Positions 1-4,290 of a DNA stretch of 4,290 nucleotides are shown in pieces. The stretch's first letter is position 1. Each line of letters begins with the position of its first letter. This stretch comes from a virus (lineage: Duplodnaviria; Heunggongvirae; Uroviricota; Caudoviricetes). Made by a program: the position numbers and the translations under genes. The stretch covers positions 1-4,290 of IMG/VR virus record IMGVR_UViG_2740892230_000030. One strand, written 5' to 3'. Below the pieces are notes generated by a model. That model was not told the origin of the DNA and searched no databases. It was given only the letters and a program-made list of their open reading frames with translations.

Positions 1-333
1 AGGCAGATAGCCTCAAGCACCCGCAGCAATTCTAACTATCCAATAGATCAATGCCAACTTCTTTTCCTGCAACATCTCTCATCATAAGTGACCCAAATTC
101 ATCCAATCAGCACAAAAGAAACATTTAAAGCGTGAATGCTACCGAACGTTCATTTCAATTACATCGTTTTGATTTTTAACAGTTTTCACCTCAACAAATC
201 AAATGGCATTAGCATTCATCATGGAAGAAAGACTGATAAAAATGATCATTTTCAATGACTTATGATCACACCGGGTATTGCCAAGTCATTCCTTTTACGC
301 CAGGATACCCACAAGTGAGTAGTCGAGGAGAGT

Positions 334-362
334 TTGCCAATTTTTGCGATATAAATTTCAAT
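334..362 (+). promoter_or_regulatory. Putative sigma70-like promoter for the 410..1507 CDS (TTGCCA at 334-339, 17-nt spacer, TTCAAT at 357-362)
   Basis: Read directly: -35-like hexamer with one mismatch to TTGACA, 17-nt spacer, -10-like hexamer matching TATAAT at 4 of 6 positions, about 50 nt upstream of the ATG. Weak -10; a guess only. Confidence 0.2.
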
Positions 363-409
363 GTCCGAAGAACCATTAATTGTTAATTGATTCTGTATAA
401 GGTATTAAC

Positions 410-1507
410 ATGACAATTTCATATATTCCTATTCTGAAAGCGAAACGTTCTGAGTTATCAGCTTTATCGCAGCTATCCATTGAAAAGAAATCAAAAATTT
501 TGCCATTACTCGAAATTGAACCAGTGCCAATTGACCCTGATTCAGGTATTGCCTTAAAGAGTTATAACGAGACTCTTATAGAGTTCGGAAAGAAAGTCTC
601 AAAATCTTGCTCAGATATGCAAGGTGTTTATATTGATGGATTATTAATTGAAGAGCATTTTATTTCTCCTGAAGATCATTACCCTATAATAAATGCGGTT
701 AATCAAGTTAGAGATATGGGGATAAGAGTTATTCCTGTCAGTTCACCAACTCGCCCATCTAACTATAAAAGAGCGATTGATGAATTAATGCAGAATGAAA
801 TATGCTTGAGATTAACCACGTTAGATCTGGTTAACCCACAATTAATAACGCATTACATTAATCATCTGGGAATTCCTTTATCAAATATTGATATAATTAT
901 TGACTTAAGAGATGAGTTAACCGAGGATAAAATTAATTCCGGCGAACTATATACTTTGGCAATGGGATTGATAAACAATCTGGCGCACCTCAATGAATAC
1001 AGAAAAGTGATTCTTTCTGGGGGTTCATTTCCTACAGATCTCAGTGATATTTCTGTTGGTCTATATTCTCAACCTCGAATCGAGTGGATTTTATGGCAGA
1101 GTTTAATGAATAGAAAAGAACTTGCCAGAAATGTGATTTATAGTGATTATGGAGTACAGCACCCCGACTTTAATAGGCTTTCGACGCGATTCCCTAGCGT
1201 ATCTGCCAGCGTCAGATACTCTGGAGATAATGACTTTTGGGTATTTCGAGGAAGAGTAGCTAATCGCTTTGGTTATGAACAATATGGTAAACATAGTGAG
1301 GATATTCTTGCTCATCGAGAATATTCAGGGCCTACATTCTGTGCGGGAGATAGAGACATAGAATATTATGCAAACGAGTATCAAGCCTACAAAGCCAATC
1401 CCTCTGGTAACTATAAATTTGGTAGCCCAGAGGTATGGCGTAGGATTGGGCAAAACCATCACATAACTAAGGTTGTTGAGCAACTCGCCACTCTTTACGG
1501 GCTTTAA
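410..1507 (+). CDS. 365-aa protein, putative 'beta protein' / sce7725-like family member (assignment from memory, unverified)
   Basis: Track ORF of 365 aa. ATG at 410 is preceded by AAGG (399-402) with a 7-nt spacer. The AT-rich composition is uniform across the ORF and no competing long ORF exists. The N-terminal motif YIPILKAKRSELSAL matches what I recall as the conserved N-terminus of the 'beta protein' family. High confidence that it is coding, low confidence in the family name. Confidence 0.8.
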   Translation: MTISYIPILKAKRSELSALSQLSIEKKSKILPLLEIEPVPIDPDSGIALKSYNETLIEFGKKVSKSCSDMQGVYIDGLLIEEHFISPEDHYPIINAVNQVRDMGIRVIPVSSPTRPSNYKRAIDELMQNEICLRLTTLDLVNPQLITHYINHLGIPLSNIDIIIDLRDELTEDKINSGELYTLAMGLINNLAHLNEYRKVILSGGSFPTDLSDISVGLYSQPRIEWILWQSLMNRKELARNVIYSDYGVQHPDFNRLSTRFPSVSASVRYSGDNDFWVFRGRVANRFGYEQYGKHSEDILAHREYSGPTFCAGDRDIEYYANEYQAYKANPSGNYKFGSPEVWRRIGQNHHITKVVEQLATLYGL

Positions 1508-2045
1508 GTTTAACTCGAACAGCTTCACGAAGCTCGCCAACATCCATACTATTGGCGAGTTTTGACCATAAGACGCGTTTAGGTTTATTTTTCAAATTCT
1601 GTAGCTCCCCTACATCACTTAATAGGGAAAGCAATTCATCTTTCCAAAGAAGCATTGTTAAGGAAAGTTTGTCCACTTGTGGATTCAACTTGCTAGTTCG
1701 AATTGTTTTTAAATGGATACCTTGCCGTGCACCTTGCGTAACTTGCTTTATCCCCCACCATGATGGAACTATGCTTAAAGCATCATAAAGATGGCAATCA
1801 GAGACAACCAAAGTTACTTTATCCATCACTGATGAGTAATGTTGCACCTGCGCTGGTAATCTGAGCAAGTTATCACTCTTGCTCTTCAACTCATAACCAT
1901 GTATAAGCCCATTGATCACTGCTATATCAGCTCTGCTAGCCCCTAGATTCATCGTAAACTCATCAATGATTAGGGTGTCAGGATCTTTATGATGATCTCT
2001 CAGAATCTTGGCATGCACAGCCTTTCTTACATCAATGTCTCTCAT
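1467..2045 (-). CDS. 192-aa PD-(D/E)xK-type nuclease-fold protein, possible sce7726-like partner of the upstream gene
   Basis: Track ORF of 192 aa. The N-terminal half contains the ordered motif set LIIDEF ... RADIAVI ... GYELKS, i.e. E, then D in a hydrophobic strand, then E-x-K, which is the canonical PD-(D/E)xK nuclease core. The Shine-Dalgarno is weak. It is convergent with the 410..1507 CDS and overlaps its 3' end by 41 nt. Confidence 0.75.
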   Translation of the reverse strand: MRDIDVRKAVHAKILRDHHKDPDTLIIDEFTMNLGASRADIAVINGLIHGYELKSKSDNLLRLPAQVQHYSSVMDKVTLVVSDCHLYDALSIVPSWWGIKQVTQGARQGIHLKTIRTSKLNPQVDKLSLTMLLWKDELLSLLSDVGELQNLKNKPKRVLWSKLANSMDVGELREAVRVKLKARKEWRVAQQP

Positions 2046-2077
2046 ACCATAGTTGCGCTTTCATCGACTCTCTCAAG

Positions 2078-2096
2078 CCATGATTCTATATCATGG
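2078..2096. promoter_or_regulatory. Perfect 7-5-7 inverted repeat (CCATGAT-tctat-ATCATGG), candidate operator upstream of the nuclease-like gene
   Basis: Read directly from the sequence. It lies 33-51 nt upstream of the ATG at 2045 on the minus strand, in the likely promoter region. Function is inferred from position only. Confidence 0.25.
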
Positions 2097-2222
2097 TTCG
2101 CATGAATGCCATTTGATATGACCAGTGGTTAAACATTGCACAGAAAAGTGGATGTGTATTTTAACAAAAGCAATGACGGCTAACCATGTTGGTATGTCGA
2201 TAAAATGTTTCAACGTAAGCAT
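2091..2222 (-). CDS. Possible 43-aa hydrophobic small protein (MLTLKHFIDIPTWLAVIAFVKIHIHF...)
   Basis: Internal ATG (2222..2220) of the 78-aa track ORF, immediately downstream of repeat copy 1. One hydrophobic stretch could be a single transmembrane helix. No strong ribosome-binding site. Speculative. Confidence 0.2.
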   Translation of the reverse strand: MLTLKHFIDIPTWLAVIAFVKIHIHFSVQCLTTGHIKWHSCEP

Positions 2223-2230
2223 TATCTGTT

Positions 2231-2303
2231 CCGCCCTTTCAGACGGTCTCCTGATGTTCTGAGGGTGCAGAATCCCTCCGGTTAAGGATTTAATAAAAAT
2301 CGT
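2231..2303. repeat. Direct repeat, copy 1 of a ~74-bp element (CCGCCCTTTC..GGTTAAGGATTTAATAAAAATCGT)
   Basis: Aligns to 2593..2666 with 3 differences (two substitutions and one 1-nt indel). It abuts the N-run at 2304-2313. Confidence 0.85.
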
Positions 2304-2313
2304 NNNNNNNNNN
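2304..2313. other. Run of 10 N (unresolved sequence)
   Basis: Literal N characters, located at the junction of a repeat and a paralogous gene. Confidence 1.
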
Positions 2314-2585
2314 GCAACCAGACACAAACCGGGCCATCTTCCGTATCATGAATGGAACCAATAAACCAGCCATCGCCCTCTGGTCGTTCCGGTTCCCATG
2401 CAGAAATANNNNNNNNNNTCCTCTTCGTCTTTTATTTCGTGGTATGAGTAATTGCAGTAGTTAAAGAAAATATCTTTAGCTTCATCCTGTATTTCATCTG
2501 GTGTTGCATCATCATCCACTTCGAATTCATCCTCGAAATCTCCACCGGCTATTCCCGTTTCAATAATTATTTTGAATTTTCGCAT
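2314..2585 (-). CDS. Very acidic small protein, paralog 1; interrupted by two N-runs, true length and frame unresolved
   Basis: ATG at 2585 opens a 55-codon highly acidic N-terminus (MRKFKIIIETGIAGGDFEDEFEVDDDATPDEIQDE...). Beyond the N-run at 2409-2418, the segment 2314-2408 encodes ISAWEPERPEGDGWFIGSIHDTEDGPVCVWL, near-identical to the C-terminus of the 2714..3025 protein. The two parts are out of phase across a 10-nt gap, so the N-run length is not real or the gene is disrupted. Confidence 0.5.
2409..2418. other. Run of 10 N (unresolved sequence)
   Basis: Literal N characters inside the acidic paralog 1 gene. Confidence 1.
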
Positions 2586-2592
2586 TTCACTA

Positions 2593-2666
2593 CCGCCCTT
2601 TCGGACGGCCTCCTGATGTTCTGAGGGTGCAGGAATCCCTCCGGTTAAGGATTTAATAAAAATCGT
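2593..2666. repeat. Direct repeat, copy 2 of the ~74-bp element
   Basis: Aligns to 2231..2303. It lies between the stop of the 2714..3025 CDS and the ATG at 2585. Confidence 0.85.
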
Positions 2667-2713
2667 TTCTGATTTAAATCTTCAGTATTTAGTTGTTAGT
2701 CGGTTTATAGCCT

Positions 2714-3025
2714 TTATGCTTCGGCCTTATTTCTCAGCCATACACAAACCGGGCCATCTTCGGTGTCATGTATTGAACCAATAAACCATCCATTGCCCTC
2801 TGGTCGTTCCGGTTCCCATGCAGAAATATCAGCATCACACGCATCAAGGTCAGCACATCCTTCATCTCTGAAGCAGAGGACGTATTGAAGATTATTTTCC
2901 TCCATCCAGGCGTTAAACTCTTCCGTTGAAATATATTCCCGACCGTCACAGAATTTTTCATATTCAGGATGCGTCCAGTAGCCATATTCATCACGTACTA
3001 CTGGTATTTCTTTAATTTCATTCAT
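2714..3025 (-). CDS. 103-aa very acidic small protein, paralog 2; function unknown, DNA-mimic or anti-defence role is speculation
   Basis: Track ORF of 103 aa with no N-run. By hand count about one residue in four is D or E and fewer than one in ten is K or R. The ATG overlaps the stop of the upstream 3018..3272 CDS (ATGAATGA), implying translational coupling. The C-terminal ~31 aa are shared with paralog 1. Confidence 0.7.
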   Translation of the reverse strand: MNEIKEIPVVRDEYGYWTHPEYEKFCDGREYISTEEFNAWMEENNLQYVLCFRDEGCADLDACDADISAWEPERPEGNGWFIGSIHDTEDGPVCVWLRNKAEA

Positions 3026-3272
3026 TTCTGTTCTCCCACGTTTTCAGACTTTCACCACAGAACGGACAAAATGAAACCCGAACTGGTAATTTAGAAAATT
3101 CACCGGAACGCAACATCACAAAATCAGGACCGCGAGTTAAACTCTCATTCCAGATTTTGTATATCAGCAGACCTTTTCGCATCGTGTATTCAGCATCATG
3201 CTCAAGGGATTTTGCCAGGGTCGTACACGGTTCTATCTTGTTGCCATAAACCTGGCATTTTGATTTACCCAC
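3018..3272 (-). CDS. 84-aa small Cys-containing protein (Cys pairs C-x9-C and C-x2-C); possible zinc-ribbon-like protein
   Basis: Track ORF of 84 aa with a GTG start preceded by AGGAGG at about 7 nt. The start overlaps the stop of the methyltransferase-like CDS (GTGGGTAA). The first 21 aa (MGKSKCQVYGNKIEPCTTLAK) are duplicated at 3784..3846. Confidence 0.6.
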   Translation of the reverse strand: MGKSKCQVYGNKIEPCTTLAKSLEHDAEYTMRKGLLIYKIWNESLTRGPDFVMLRSGEFSKLPVRVSFCPFCGESLKTWENRNE

Positions 3273-3753
3273 TGGTCGCCTCCTTCACAAAAATAATCCA
3301 ATGTGTTTTATCGTTCTTACCGGTGCGCTGGCTGATGATTGGTTTCGCGTCGGTTAGTGCCAATATCTGGCGGACAGATATTTGCGTTTCATTCCATTTA
3401 AAAATCAGAACGCCATGTGGCCACAACACACGAAAAGCTTCTTTAAATCCCTGCCGCAAATCATCACGCCAGGTATCTTTATTCAACCGTCCATATTTCT
3501 TTCCCATCCAGGCTTTATCACCAACACACTCAAGATGCGGAGGGTCGAATACAACAACCGGAAACGATGCGTCTGCAAATGGTAATGCTCGAAAATCTGC
3601 TATCAGGTCAGGACTGATAATCAGGCGTCGTCCATCACACAATGTGTGCTCTTCTTTTCTGATATCGCTAAATATCGCCCGGTCGTCATTCTTATCGAAC
3701 CAGAACATACGGCTGCCACAGCACATATCAAGAATGGTTGCCGGTGCACTCAC
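3265..3753 (-). CDS. Small (~162 aa) SAM-dependent methyltransferase-like protein, amino-methyltransferase type, with no visible restriction partner
   Basis: Motifs in Rossmann-methyltransferase order: ILDMCCGS (motif I-like), AIFSDIR (acidic motif II-like), VVVFDPPH (motif IV, DPPY-like). The likely start is GTG at 3753, preceded by AGGAGG with a 7-nt spacer. The 193-aa track ORF 3265..3846 fuses this gene to an upstream small ORF across an N-run and should not be taken literally. Confidence 0.7.
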   Translation of the reverse strand: MSAPATILDMCCGSRMFWFDKNDDRAIFSDIRKEEHTLCDGRRLIISPDLIADFRALPFADASFPVVVFDPPHLECVGDKAWMGKKYGRLNKDTWRDDLRQGFKEAFRVLWPHGVLIFKWNETQISVRQILALTDAKPIISQRTGKNDKTHWIIFVKEATSG

Positions 3754-3773
3754 TGCGCTACCTCCTGAAAATT

Positions 3774-3783
3774 NNNNNNNNNN
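3774..3783. other. Run of 10 N (unresolved sequence)
   Basis: Literal N characters between the small-ORF paralog and the methyltransferase-like gene start. Confidence 1.
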
Positions 3784-3846
3784 CTTTGCCAGTGCTGCAC
3801 ATGGTTCTATCTTGTTGCCATTAACCTGGCATTTTGATTCACTCAC
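3784..3846 (-). CDS. 5' fragment (21 codons) of a paralog of the 84-aa Cys-containing protein; 3' part lost in the N-run
   Basis: GTG start at 3846 overlaps the stop of the upstream 55-codon-unit gene. The encoded MSESKCQVNGNKIEPCAALAK matches the N-terminus of the 3018..3272 protein at 17 of 21 positions. Confidence 0.45.
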
Positions 3847-4031
3847 CGCACCACCTCCTCAAAATTCCCCTGATAAAACGCCAGTACGCGCTGCATAACT
3901 TCGCTCTTCCGGCACTCGAGACAGATTATGTTCAGACGCCTGTCGTAGCGGCGTATTTCGCCATCTGGTAATGACCAGATAAGGTCCGGATCAACCGCAG
4001 ATGGTTTCTTCAGCTTTGCCCTTGAGAGTTT
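3843..4031 (-). CDS. Small protein, repeat unit B (…KLSRAKLKKPSAVDPDLIWSLPDGEIRRYDRRLNIICLECRKSEVMQRVLAFYQGNFEEVVR*); 5' end lies in the N-run
   Basis: My own translation of the minus strand from 4031 gives 62 codons then TGA at 3845..3843. No start codon is visible because the 5' end abuts the N-run at 4032-4041. Function unknown. Confidence 0.45.
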   Translation of the reverse strand, partial: KLSRAKLKKPSAVDPDLIWSLPDGEIRRYDRRLNIICLECRKSEVMQRVLAFYQGNFEEVVR

Positions 4032-4041
4032 NNNNNNNNNN
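4032..4041. other. Run of 10 N (unresolved sequence)
   Basis: Literal N characters exactly at the junction of the two 165-bp tandem units. Confidence 1.
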
Positions 4042-4206
4042 ACCCTGATAAAACGACAATATGCGCTGCATAACTTCGCTCTTCCGGCACTCGCGACAGA
4101 TTATGTTCTGACGCCTGTCGTAGCGACGTATTTCTCCGTCAGGTAATAGCCAGATAAGGTCCGGATCAACCACAGATGGTTTCTTCAGCTTTGCCCTTGA
4201 GAGTTT
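4042..4206 (-). CDS. Repeat unit A coding segment (KLSRAKLKKPSVVDPDLIWLLPDGEIRRYDRRQNIICRECRKSEVMQRILSFYQG), bounded on both sides by N-runs
   Basis: Open frame of 55 codons, paralogous to unit B. Start and stop are not visible. Confidence 0.4.
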
Positions 4207-4216
4207 NNNNNNNNNN
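4207..4216. other. Run of 10 N (unresolved sequence)
   Basis: Literal N characters upstream of repeat unit A. Confidence 1.
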
Positions 4217-4290
4217 TTTACGAGCCTGTTCAGACGGGAATAACCCGTAGCCAGAATTGTATACATCGCCACTGGCAACCAGCTCTCTGG
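4217..4290 (-). CDS. Possible 3' portion of a minus-strand gene that begins beyond the window edge (…PESWLPVAMYTILATGYSRLNRLV…)
   Basis: The frame is open from the window edge to the N-run. The track ORF starts at TTG 4278, but the frame is also open upstream of it. Identity unknown. Confidence 0.25.

Follow-up and report, generated by a model that had tools for sequence, protein, structure and literature searches.

Apparent direct repeats around a prophage methyltransferase gene are very probably two alleles of one junction written in series

The window, that is, the whole stretch of viral DNA analysed here (4,290 nt), reads as a predicted methyltransferase gene placed between two direct repeats of about 80 bp, each with a ribosome-binding site (RBS) and the start of a small gene. 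These repeats are almost certainly a single gene junction taken from two versions of a prophage and written one after the other. They would thus be a product of scaffolding and not a feature of any single DNA molecule. This removes a false lead, since a gene framed by 80-bp repeats of an RBS and a gene start turns out to be a scaffold that lists two prophage alleles. The remaining biology is standard: a gene-bounded orphan methyltransferase that is variably present in lambdoid prophages of Escherichia coli.

Composition of the window

The window consists of six segments strung together by five runs of 10 Ns. Their order is A, C, B, A, B, A, each segment is 99.8-100% identical to its own reference, and the segments belong in turn to different versions of a lambdoid, Rac-like E. 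coli prophage. Allele A comprises 1-2303, 3784-4031, and 4217-4290, which are 99.8-100% identical to strain 90-3040 (locus L003); its gene order is DUF977, 84-aa gene, and 103-aa gene, without the methyltransferase gene. Allele B comprises 2419-3773 and 4042-4206, matches E. coli 55989 (locus L001) with 100% identity, and has the order DUF977, methyltransferase, 84-aa gene, and 103-aa gene. The third allele, C, is represented by 2314-2408; it is 91% identical to alleles A and B and is matched at 100% in more than 30 E. coli prophage contigs of IMG/VR. The features of the window are as follows.

1-2303, no strand assigned: allele-A node, 99.8-99.9% identical to positions 1771-4073 of loci L003 and L004 and 100% identical to strain 2013C-3264
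410-1507, plus strand: beta-family gene in the allele-A node 1-2303
1467-2045, minus strand: sce7726-family gene in the same node, which otherwise holds intergenic DNA
2314-2408, minus strand: allele C, 3' end of the 103-aa gene, counterpart of 2734-2828
2667-3209, minus strand: stretch nearly identical in A and B (103-aa gene and the greater part of the 84-aa gene), present once in the window, on the allele-B node
3018-3272, minus strand: gene of the 84-aa Cys-containing small protein, allele B, PHROG 4030, with a GTG start that lies within the methyltransferase gene, 8 nt from its 3' end
3211-3290, no strand assigned: repeat copy 1, the genuine allele-B junction of the methyltransferase and 84-aa genes (RBS, GTG, and first 21 codons), within 2419-3773
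3265-3753, minus strand: methyltransferase gene, allele B, 162 aa, with a GTG start overlapping the DUF977 stop (GTGA)
3750-3773, minus strand: last 24 nt of the allele-B DUF977 gene, the coding sequence of which resumes at 4042-4206 and not at 3784
3774-3783, no strand assigned: 10-N scaffold join from an allele-B node to an allele-A node
3784-4031, minus strand: allele-A node with repeat copy 2, 100% identical to L003 4617-4864
3784-3846, minus strand: first 21 codons of the allele-A 84-aa gene, inside node 3784-4031
3843-4031, minus strand: 3' end of the allele-A DUF977 gene, inside node 3784-4031
4032-4041, no strand assigned: 10-N scaffold join
4042-4206, minus strand: allele-B node, 3' part of DUF977, allelic counterpart of 3867-4031 (repeat family D1)
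4207-4216, no strand assigned: 10-N join, standing in place of a 21-nt stretch common to A and B (L003 4865-4885, equal to L001 5353-5373)
4217-4290, minus strand: allele-A node, a more upstream part of DUF977, 100% identical to L003 4886-4959

Segment mapping places 2419-3773 at positions 3833-5187 of L001 and L002, and 4042-4206 at positions 5188-5352 of L001, in both cases with 100% identity. The two allele-B segments therefore abut exactly (5187|5188 in 55989), and the B sequence on either side of the A segment 3784-4031 runs on without a gap or an extra base in two closed genomes. When 4206-4042 is spliced onto 3773-3750, an uninterrupted DUF977 C-terminus is obtained, ending in ...FYQGNFQEVAQ*, and the restored stop codon overlaps the start of the methyltransferase gene. 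The annotations of the closed genomes of 55989 and AF39 agree with this reconstruction, as in both of them DUF977 leads directly into the methyltransferase gene, followed by the 84-aa gene. By annotation, 90-3040 and pSTEC1024_3 are without the methyltransferase gene. In the real allele A (L003), DUF977 and the 84-aa gene follow each other directly, with no methyltransferase gene between them.

The apparent direct repeats

The similarity that drew attention to this locus is real as text. In the repeat search, 3211-3272 and 3785-3846 (family D4) are 87% identical (54/62), a level of matching with a chance probability of about 1e-24. Global alignment of 3211-3290 with 3785-3865 gives 66 identities in 82 columns (about 80%), close to the dozen or so substitutions originally counted by hand. 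Each copy also contains, on the minus strand, the elements ascribed to it: AGGAGG, a GTG start codon that shares bases with the stop codon of the gene before it, and 21 codons coding for the Cys-containing small protein (VGKSKCQVYGNKIEPCTTLAK in one copy and VSESKCQVNGNKIEPCAALAK in the other).

The position of the second copy tells a different story from the one in which the methyltransferase gene lies between both copies on one molecule. Copy 2 begins at the first base past the N-run 3774-3783, its 21 codons stop at the contig edge, and it belongs to a segment of the allele that has no methyltransferase gene. Copy 1 is the allele-B methyltransferase/84-aa junction, and copy 2 would be the allele-A DUF977/84-aa junction. 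Their homology is that of two alleles of one gene start and does not stem from a duplication on one molecule. The same holds for the window as a whole: all four of its long repeat families (D1-D4) are pairs of A, B, or C alleles divided by N-runs. A 193-aa open reading frame that runs through the Ns (3265-3846) was rejected as a chimera; the real methyltransferase gene occupies 3265-3753 and encodes 162 aa.

The original prediction had also taken the repeats of about 80 bp for substrates or scars of recombination. That role is contradicted by 55989 and AF39, both of which carry the exact gene without a second copy. In the real locus of 55989, the two flanks of the gene align with a score of 10, compared with 6.8 ± 1.4 after shuffling, and 98 of 2,000 shuffles reach this score; what the flanks have in common is a weak junction motif of RBS and GTG. 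The closed allele-B locus was accordingly judged to have no significant direct repeat, the local alignment of the junctions being no better than that of shuffles.

Segment ends and the assembly

The ends of the segments follow a simple rule. The allele-specific segments that can be tested each start on the first variant base (four starts). Where an end can be compared with the homologous allele, it lies exactly 34 nt past the last variant, in all four segments. In segment 3784-4031, the first letter is the first A/B variant base and the last variant is followed by 34 nt; 2314-2408 likewise opens with a variant base and runs on for 34 nt after its last one. Segment 4042-4206 differs from 3867-4031 at 13 positions, the last of which sits 34 nt before its end. 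Segment 4217-4290 also starts on a variant base, and the end of the window is 34 nt past the last variant. The allele-A node 1-2303 ends 34 nt into sequence common to allele B.

This pattern appears to be the signature of nodes in a de Bruijn graph with k = 35, where both the assembler and k are deduced from the segment ends. The window would accordingly be part of a draft scaffold in which short graph nodes from two, and locally three, versions of a Rac-like prophage were joined by 10-N spacers. Alleles A and B differ at one base in the alignment of the 543-nt stretch 2667-3209, and because the two are nearly identical there, the 103-aa gene and the bulk of the 84-aa gene were assembled once. 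Where they diverge, both allele arms would have been written one after the other.

Bubble and repeat-collapse artefacts of de Bruijn assemblies (Velvet-style, with short N-runs) share these traits with the window. The first variant opens each segment and the last one is followed by k-1 (34) nt, near-identical sequence is written once, short shared nodes are turned into Ns, and arms placed in series give the appearance of tandem or direct repeats. The window differs from a simple two-arm bubble in having three or more alleles, and its assembler and k are deduced. One break is not accounted for by the A/B difference: the B-node break at L001 5187|5188 would require a further allele with the same 34 nt ahead of it. 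At the very base of this break, L002 and L001 differ.

By its own terms, the original prediction was to fall if the second copy proved to be an assembly artefact, and this is where the evidence points. For other cases in which similar segments surround short N-runs, three questions can be reused: whether the segments map alternately to different relatives, whether segments of the same allele abut once the intervening one is removed, and whether their ends follow the k-1 rule.

Source of the alleles

The same artefact could also have arisen from alleles A, B, and C of different cells, as in a mixed culture, a contamination, or a metagenome, instead of from prophages residing in one cell. This origin is a real but lesser possibility, with perhaps one chance in a few of being correct. 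It would fit the finding of three or more alleles within 4.3 kb, and no closed genome was found that has both A and B at 100% identity. However, matching genomes hold up to 8 matching places each. Closed genomes also exist in which an allele-A prophage and a methyltransferase-bearing relative occupy separate loci (CP027766, CP027552, CP047378, and CM168014). Co-residence of such prophages is common and sufficient to explain the alleles, while the window alone fits a mixture of strains as well.

The predicted methyltransferase

The gene product is predicted, from its family membership, to be an orphan S-adenosylmethionine (SAM)-dependent DNA methyltransferase, and its putative substrate, specificity, and role are derived in the same way. 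The identical sequence in L001 and L002 is annotated as a class I SAM-dependent or TRM11-family methyltransferase. The protein matches PHROG 954 ("DNA methyltransferase") with an E-value of 5.2e-86, as well as the PADLOC models MTase_II (2.3e-71) and oMTase (6.1e-49). Its scores with Pfam Methyltransf_11 and Methyltransf_25 stay below the cut-offs, NCBIfam has no model for it, and a sequence search of the PDB gave no match at E ≤ 1. A glycine-rich motif of the GxG type (LDMCCGSR) is found at residues 8-15 and a DPPH motif at residues 70-73. The former is presumably the SAM-binding motif and the latter is taken to be a catalytic motif of the (D/N/S)PP(Y/F/W/H) type.

No restriction-enzyme gene adjoins the methyltransferase gene in the closed genomes, where its neighbours are DUF977 and genes of small hypothetical proteins. 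The orphan methyltransferases known from phages and prophages (PHROG 954; PADLOC oMTase and MTase_II) are likewise located in the early region of temperate phages without an adjacent restriction gene, but by comparison the enzyme of the window is very small (162 aa). A relation to the prophage enzyme M.EcoGII, a beta-class methyltransferase of 349 aa with an N-terminal DPPY (PMC5778455), was ruled out on size and motif order. The methyltransferase gene shares 4 and 8 nt with its two neighbours, and the module is translationally coupled to them via these overlapping stop and start codons. Upon induction, it may be expressed with the early or replication operon, and the methyltransferase might then methylate phage DNA and so blunt host restriction.

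Presence and absence of the methyltransferase module

A 481-bp orphan methyltransferase module with gene boundaries comes and goes among lambdoid prophages, which is ordinary mosaicism. The alignment of A with B contains an indel of 481 bp that spans the methyltransferase gene exactly from start to stop. In several neighbourhoods and across thousands of genomes, the breakpoints of the module lie at its own stop codon and RBS, and it was found in at least three gene neighbourhoods. Roughly 870 complete genomes contain the module. In 505 genomes, a single place accounts for 80% or more of a query that extends across the methyltransferase gene and the 3' end of DUF977; in the entries sampled from these 505 genomes, the two form one contiguous piece. 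Comparison with related elements yielded relatives with one copy of the junction and no methyltransferase gene, and copy 2 of the window itself derives from such a relative. The proposed cassette-like insertion therefore holds in one respect, an indel of the methyltransferase gene at a pre-existing DUF977/84-aa junction, and fails in the other, exchange through the repeats of about 80 bp.

According to the modular theory of Botstein, the genomes of lambdoid phages are made up of exchanged modules. The locus resembles lambdoid mosaicism, with its homeologous recombination with prophages (PMC3945230, PMC2327257), in that one accessory gene occupies a fixed position of an operon in some Rac-like prophages and is missing from others that are otherwise homologous, with boundaries at gene ends. 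The flanking genes of A and B offer hundreds of bases at 91-99.8% identity, which is suited to exchange by Red, RecET, or RecA. Measured against this mosaicism, nothing about the module is unusual, and there are no long flanking repeats in any one genome. Lambdoid phages take up prophage DNA by homologous recombination in diverged flanks, and such diverged flanking homology suffices for exchange mediated by Red or RecA (PMC3945230). Gain or loss of the module may have proceeded in this way, through homologous or homeologous recombination in the conserved flanking genes. There is also a loose likeness to the gene cassettes of integrons, with a single promoter-less gene in an expressed array. 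Unlike these cassettes, the module has neighbours that overlap it by 4-8 nt, which leaves no space for a recombination site. An integron cassette was rejected, as there is no attC-like inverted repeat in 3200-3900 and no integrase in the 9-kb contexts.

A different route has been considered for the movement of the module between operon positions, namely recombination at a short junction motif, AGGAGG-N6-7-CAGTGA, at both of its ends. The upstream end of the module carries the motif in L001, L002, L006, and L007. The downstream end carries it in L007, and a near-match (AGGAGGCGACCAGTGG) in L001. In addition, the allele-A junction AGGAGGTGGTGCGGTGA reads as though one B junction had been fused to the other by a crossover inside CAGTGAGTG/CAGTGGGTA, and the breakpoints at the RBS and stop codon of the module in at least three neighbourhoods would fit. 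This route is nevertheless unlikely. The L001 flanks are not significantly similar to each other by the shuffling comparison (98/2000 as good), and the flanking genes already provide enough homology for Red or RecA exchange (PMC3945230). The sharp change in A/B identity lies inside the 84-aa gene (window position 3210) and not at the junction. Moreover, translational coupling in any case calls for the Shine-Dalgarno sequence, the spacer, and the GTGA overlap, and selection on function then explains the motif. The still bolder idea that an RBS with overlapping stop and start codons is a portable linker, by which lambdoid recombinases plug in modules in register, is slightly less probable again. 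If true, the linker would serve the positions at DUF977/84-aa gene, at eae-like/ead-Ea22, and in the yfdR neighbourhood.

The written arrangement and minor observations

The arrangement of the window was found in none of the 5,426 complete E. coli genomes searched. In these genomes, the best coverage of window 3600-3960 is 82%, with matching spans of 260-268 bp compared with 361 bp in the window, and the matching spans for 2587-4290 are 1352-1448 bp compared with 1704 bp. A pattern bridging the N-run with a gap of 0-30 nt had no match in viral, genome, and metagenome collections; as a control, it matches the window itself through the literal Ns.

It is hence very hard to believe that the source genome truly has the methyltransferase gene between two diverged junction copies, with tandemly duplicated DUF977 3' fragments and the repeats as cassette scars or substrates: the window text does place a copy in direct orientation on each side of the gene, and the fixed-length N-runs might conceivably mask or stand for small unresolved stretches, but the B sequence around the A segment is contiguous in two closed genomes, the A segment is 100% identical to a prophage without the methyltransferase gene, the k-1 = 34 rule at the segment ends is not expected of biology, neither the complete genomes nor the three public collections contain the arrangement, and DUF977 would have to lie in three truncated, interleaved fragments with every cut exactly at an N-run.

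A reading of the locus as a plasmid leading region was also rejected, as BLAST shows a chromosomal context of Rac-like lambdoid prophage. An Rfam scan of the window returned only a sub-threshold sok fragment at 1-22, and a structure of Shine-Dalgarno sequence, hairpin, and ATG upstream of DUF7167 was no different from shuffles. A literature search on the sce7726 and beta proteins brought up only a link to PD-lambda-2.

The reported repeat

The likeness of the two sequences flanking the methyltransferase-like gene was borne out. A repeat search of the window gives 87% identity between 3211-3272 and 3785-3846, and global alignment of the proposed copies (3211-3290 and 3785-3865) yields 66 identities in 82 columns; a similarity arising by chance is ruled out. 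The surrounding genes all lie on the minus strand, and on that strand both copies contain, as originally predicted, AGGAGG, a GTG start overlapping the stop of the upstream gene and 21 codons of a small Cys-containing protein. What does not hold is the placement of a second copy beside the methyltransferase gene. The segment containing copy 2 is the junction of a DUF977 gene and an 84-aa gene in a prophage version that lacks the methyltransferase. Copy 2 begins at the first base past a run of Ns, so that its "21 codons" stop at a contig edge, and the 193-aa ORF at 3265-3846, which crosses the Ns, is a chimera. A scaffolding artefact is the best reading of this feature. Beneath it lies a polymorphism that is a textbook example of lambdoid mosaicism, the accessory gene concerned being of a known kind.

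Composition of the window

The 4,290 nt include five runs of ten Ns each. The stretches between them were each aligned to two loci with the methyltransferase (allele B: L001, E. coli 55989; L002, AF39) and two without it (allele A: L003, strain 90-3040; L004, pSTEC1024_3).

Segments of the window, their best placement and the intervening N-runs
1-2303: L003/L004 1771-4073, 99.8-99.9%, allele A
2304-2313: N-run
2314-2408: L001-L004 at 91%, more than 30 IMG/VR prophage contigs at 100%, allele C
2409-2418: N-run
2419-3773: L001/L002 3833-5187, 100%, allele B
3774-3783: N-run
3784-4031: L003 4617-4864, 100%, allele A
4032-4041: N-run
4042-4206: L001 5188-5352, 100%, allele B
4207-4216: N-run
4217-4290: L003 4886-4959, 100%, allele A

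The allele-B pieces end at L001 5187 and resume at 5188, and are thus adjacent in the closed genome; once spliced, they encode an uninterrupted DUF977 C-terminus, and the TGA that ends it overlaps the GTG of the methyltransferase gene. Segment 2314-2408 is the 3' end of a third version of a 103-aa gene; it shares 91% identity with alleles A and B, and its perfect matches are E. coli prophage contigs. With allele C also present, the source had at least three related prophage versions. The break 3773|4042 between allele-B nodes is not accounted for by allele A. It falls on the only base that distinguishes 55989 from AF39 at this place, a hint that the sample included a fourth allele resembling that of AF39.

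Alignment of alleles A and B reveals three zones of divergence. L003 4074-4616 (window 2667-3209) has a single difference in 543 nt; divergence is about 14% in the first 21 codons of the 84-aa gene and about 8% in the 3' part of DUF977. Each testable allele-specific segment starts at the first variant base, and the four segment ends that can be compared with the homologous allele lie exactly 34 nt past the last variant base, a rule that the window end at 4290 also obeys. A 21-nt stretch common to both alleles (L003 4865-4885) is missing from the window and replaced by Ns. From the 34-nt regularity, we infer that the segments are probably nodes of a k=35 de Bruijn graph, joined with their k-1 overlaps left out.

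All four long repeat families of the window (D1-D4) are allele pairs of this kind. Besides the reported pair, they comprise 2231-2299 and 2593-2661 (A/B), 2315-2408 and 2735-2828 (C/B), and 3868-4041 and 4043-4216 (A/B), with N-runs between the members of each. The same artefactual origin applies to every finding in the window that is based on repeats. What is of use here is the explanation of the repeat and, with it, a simple way to test other windows of this sort.

The region in closed genomes

By BLAST, the region sits in Rac-like/lambdoid prophages of E. coli. Positions 2587-4290 are matched in part by 4171 of 5426 complete genomes, the best six spanning 1352-1448 bp versus 1704 bp in the window; further matches occur in a few phages, e.g. 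Rac-SA53, and some phage-plasmids. On the gene strand, 55989 and AF39 have the order DUF977, 162-aa methyltransferase, 84-aa gene, 103-aa gene, DUF7167. In 90-3040 and pSTEC1024_3, DUF977 is followed directly by the 84-aa and 103-aa genes, after which come a gene of the sce7726 family and one of the beta family, the arrangement also seen in window 1-2303. Coverage of window 3600-3960 reaches at most 82% in any complete genome; matches span 260-268 bp versus 361 bp in the window, so the methyltransferase start directly abuts DUF977 in every genome. A pattern across the N-run, allowing a gap of 0-30 nt, was absent from viral, genome and metagenome collections; it does match the window.

In the closed genomes CP027766, CP027552, CP047378 and CM168014, an allele-A prophage is present together with a methyltransferase-bearing relative at another locus. 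Several paralogous prophages in one strain therefore suffice as the source, and derivation of the alleles from a strain mixture is rather unlikely.

The methyltransferase module

3265-3753, minus strand: methyltransferase gene, identified by profile matches and motifs

The product matches PHROG 954 "DNA methyltransferase" (5e-86) and the PADLOC models MTase_II (2.3e-71) and oMTase (6e-49), and contains the motifs LDMCCGSR and DPPH. Pfam models match below threshold only, NCBIfam has no model for it and the PDB holds no relative by sequence. No restriction gene adjoins it in the L001 and L002 neighbourhoods, which makes it an orphan enzyme. Its architecture is unrelated to that of the prophage methyltransferase M.EcoGII.

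Compared with allele A, the gene amounts to an indel of 481 bp whose limits are exactly its start and stop; it shares 4 nt (GTGA) with DUF977 and 8 nt with the 84-aa gene. Across complete genomes, homology of the module breaks at the stop codon and at the ribosome-binding site. One position of the module is after DUF977: the methyltransferase and DUF977 3' end, used as one query, were covered to at least 80% at one place in 505 genomes, and were contiguous as one piece in the rows sampled from these. Elsewhere, the module lies between eae-like and ead/Ea22-like genes, or near yfdR in O157:H7. Pseudogenes with frameshifts, internal stops or truncation are many (e.g. L005 1500-1944, L006 1515-1988 and L008 1479-1664, further module loci), which suggests weak selection in resident prophages.

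Gene order and overlapping stop and start codons imply that the module is co-transcribed and translationally coupled with the early/replication operon; in L001, replication genes are located upstream. The module would be expressed on induction, and its enzyme may methylate phage DNA and thereby evade restriction, the usual role of phage orphan methyltransferases. Gain and loss would proceed via homologous or homeologous recombination within the flanking genes, which are 91-99.8% identical. Such identity sufficed experimentally for lambda-prophage exchange (PMC3945230).

Recombination at the short junction motif AGGAGG-N6-7-CAGTGA, a reduced form of the original prediction, is very improbable. 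The motif is present at the module ends, but translational coupling needs it in any case; moreover, the likeness of the two flanks in a closed genome is equalled by 5% of shuffles, and A/B identity changes sharply within the 84-aa gene rather than at the junction. An integron-like cassette was rejected, as the module lacks the attC-type repeat and integrase of integron cassettes and has no intergenic space.

Other features of the window

410-1507, plus strand: first gene of a convergent pair
1467-2045, minus strand: second gene of the pair, sce7726 family (NF033832, 1.7e-56; PADLOC "cll", 2.4e-28)
2586-2620, minus strand (allele A, 2222-2260, minus strand): hairpin before the DUF7167 gene
1-22, minus strand: partial match to the sok antitoxin RNA start

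The convergent genes overlap by 41 nt and, in allele-A prophages, occupy a variable slot that separates hokD from the early genes; in allele B, this slot contains IS1 and small genes. They are a candidate prophage-borne defence pair.

Upstream of DUF7167, a GCCGUCC-GAAA-GGGCGGU hairpin stands between AGGAGG and the ATG. If formed, the hairpin would bring the ribosome-binding site near the start codon; its folding energy is no better than that of shuffles, and the minimum-free-energy fold of allele A at this start is different.

The sok match is sub-threshold (20 bits versus a gathering score of 59) and is truncated at the edge of the window. It fits the neighbouring hokD, which lies just outside in L003 and L004.
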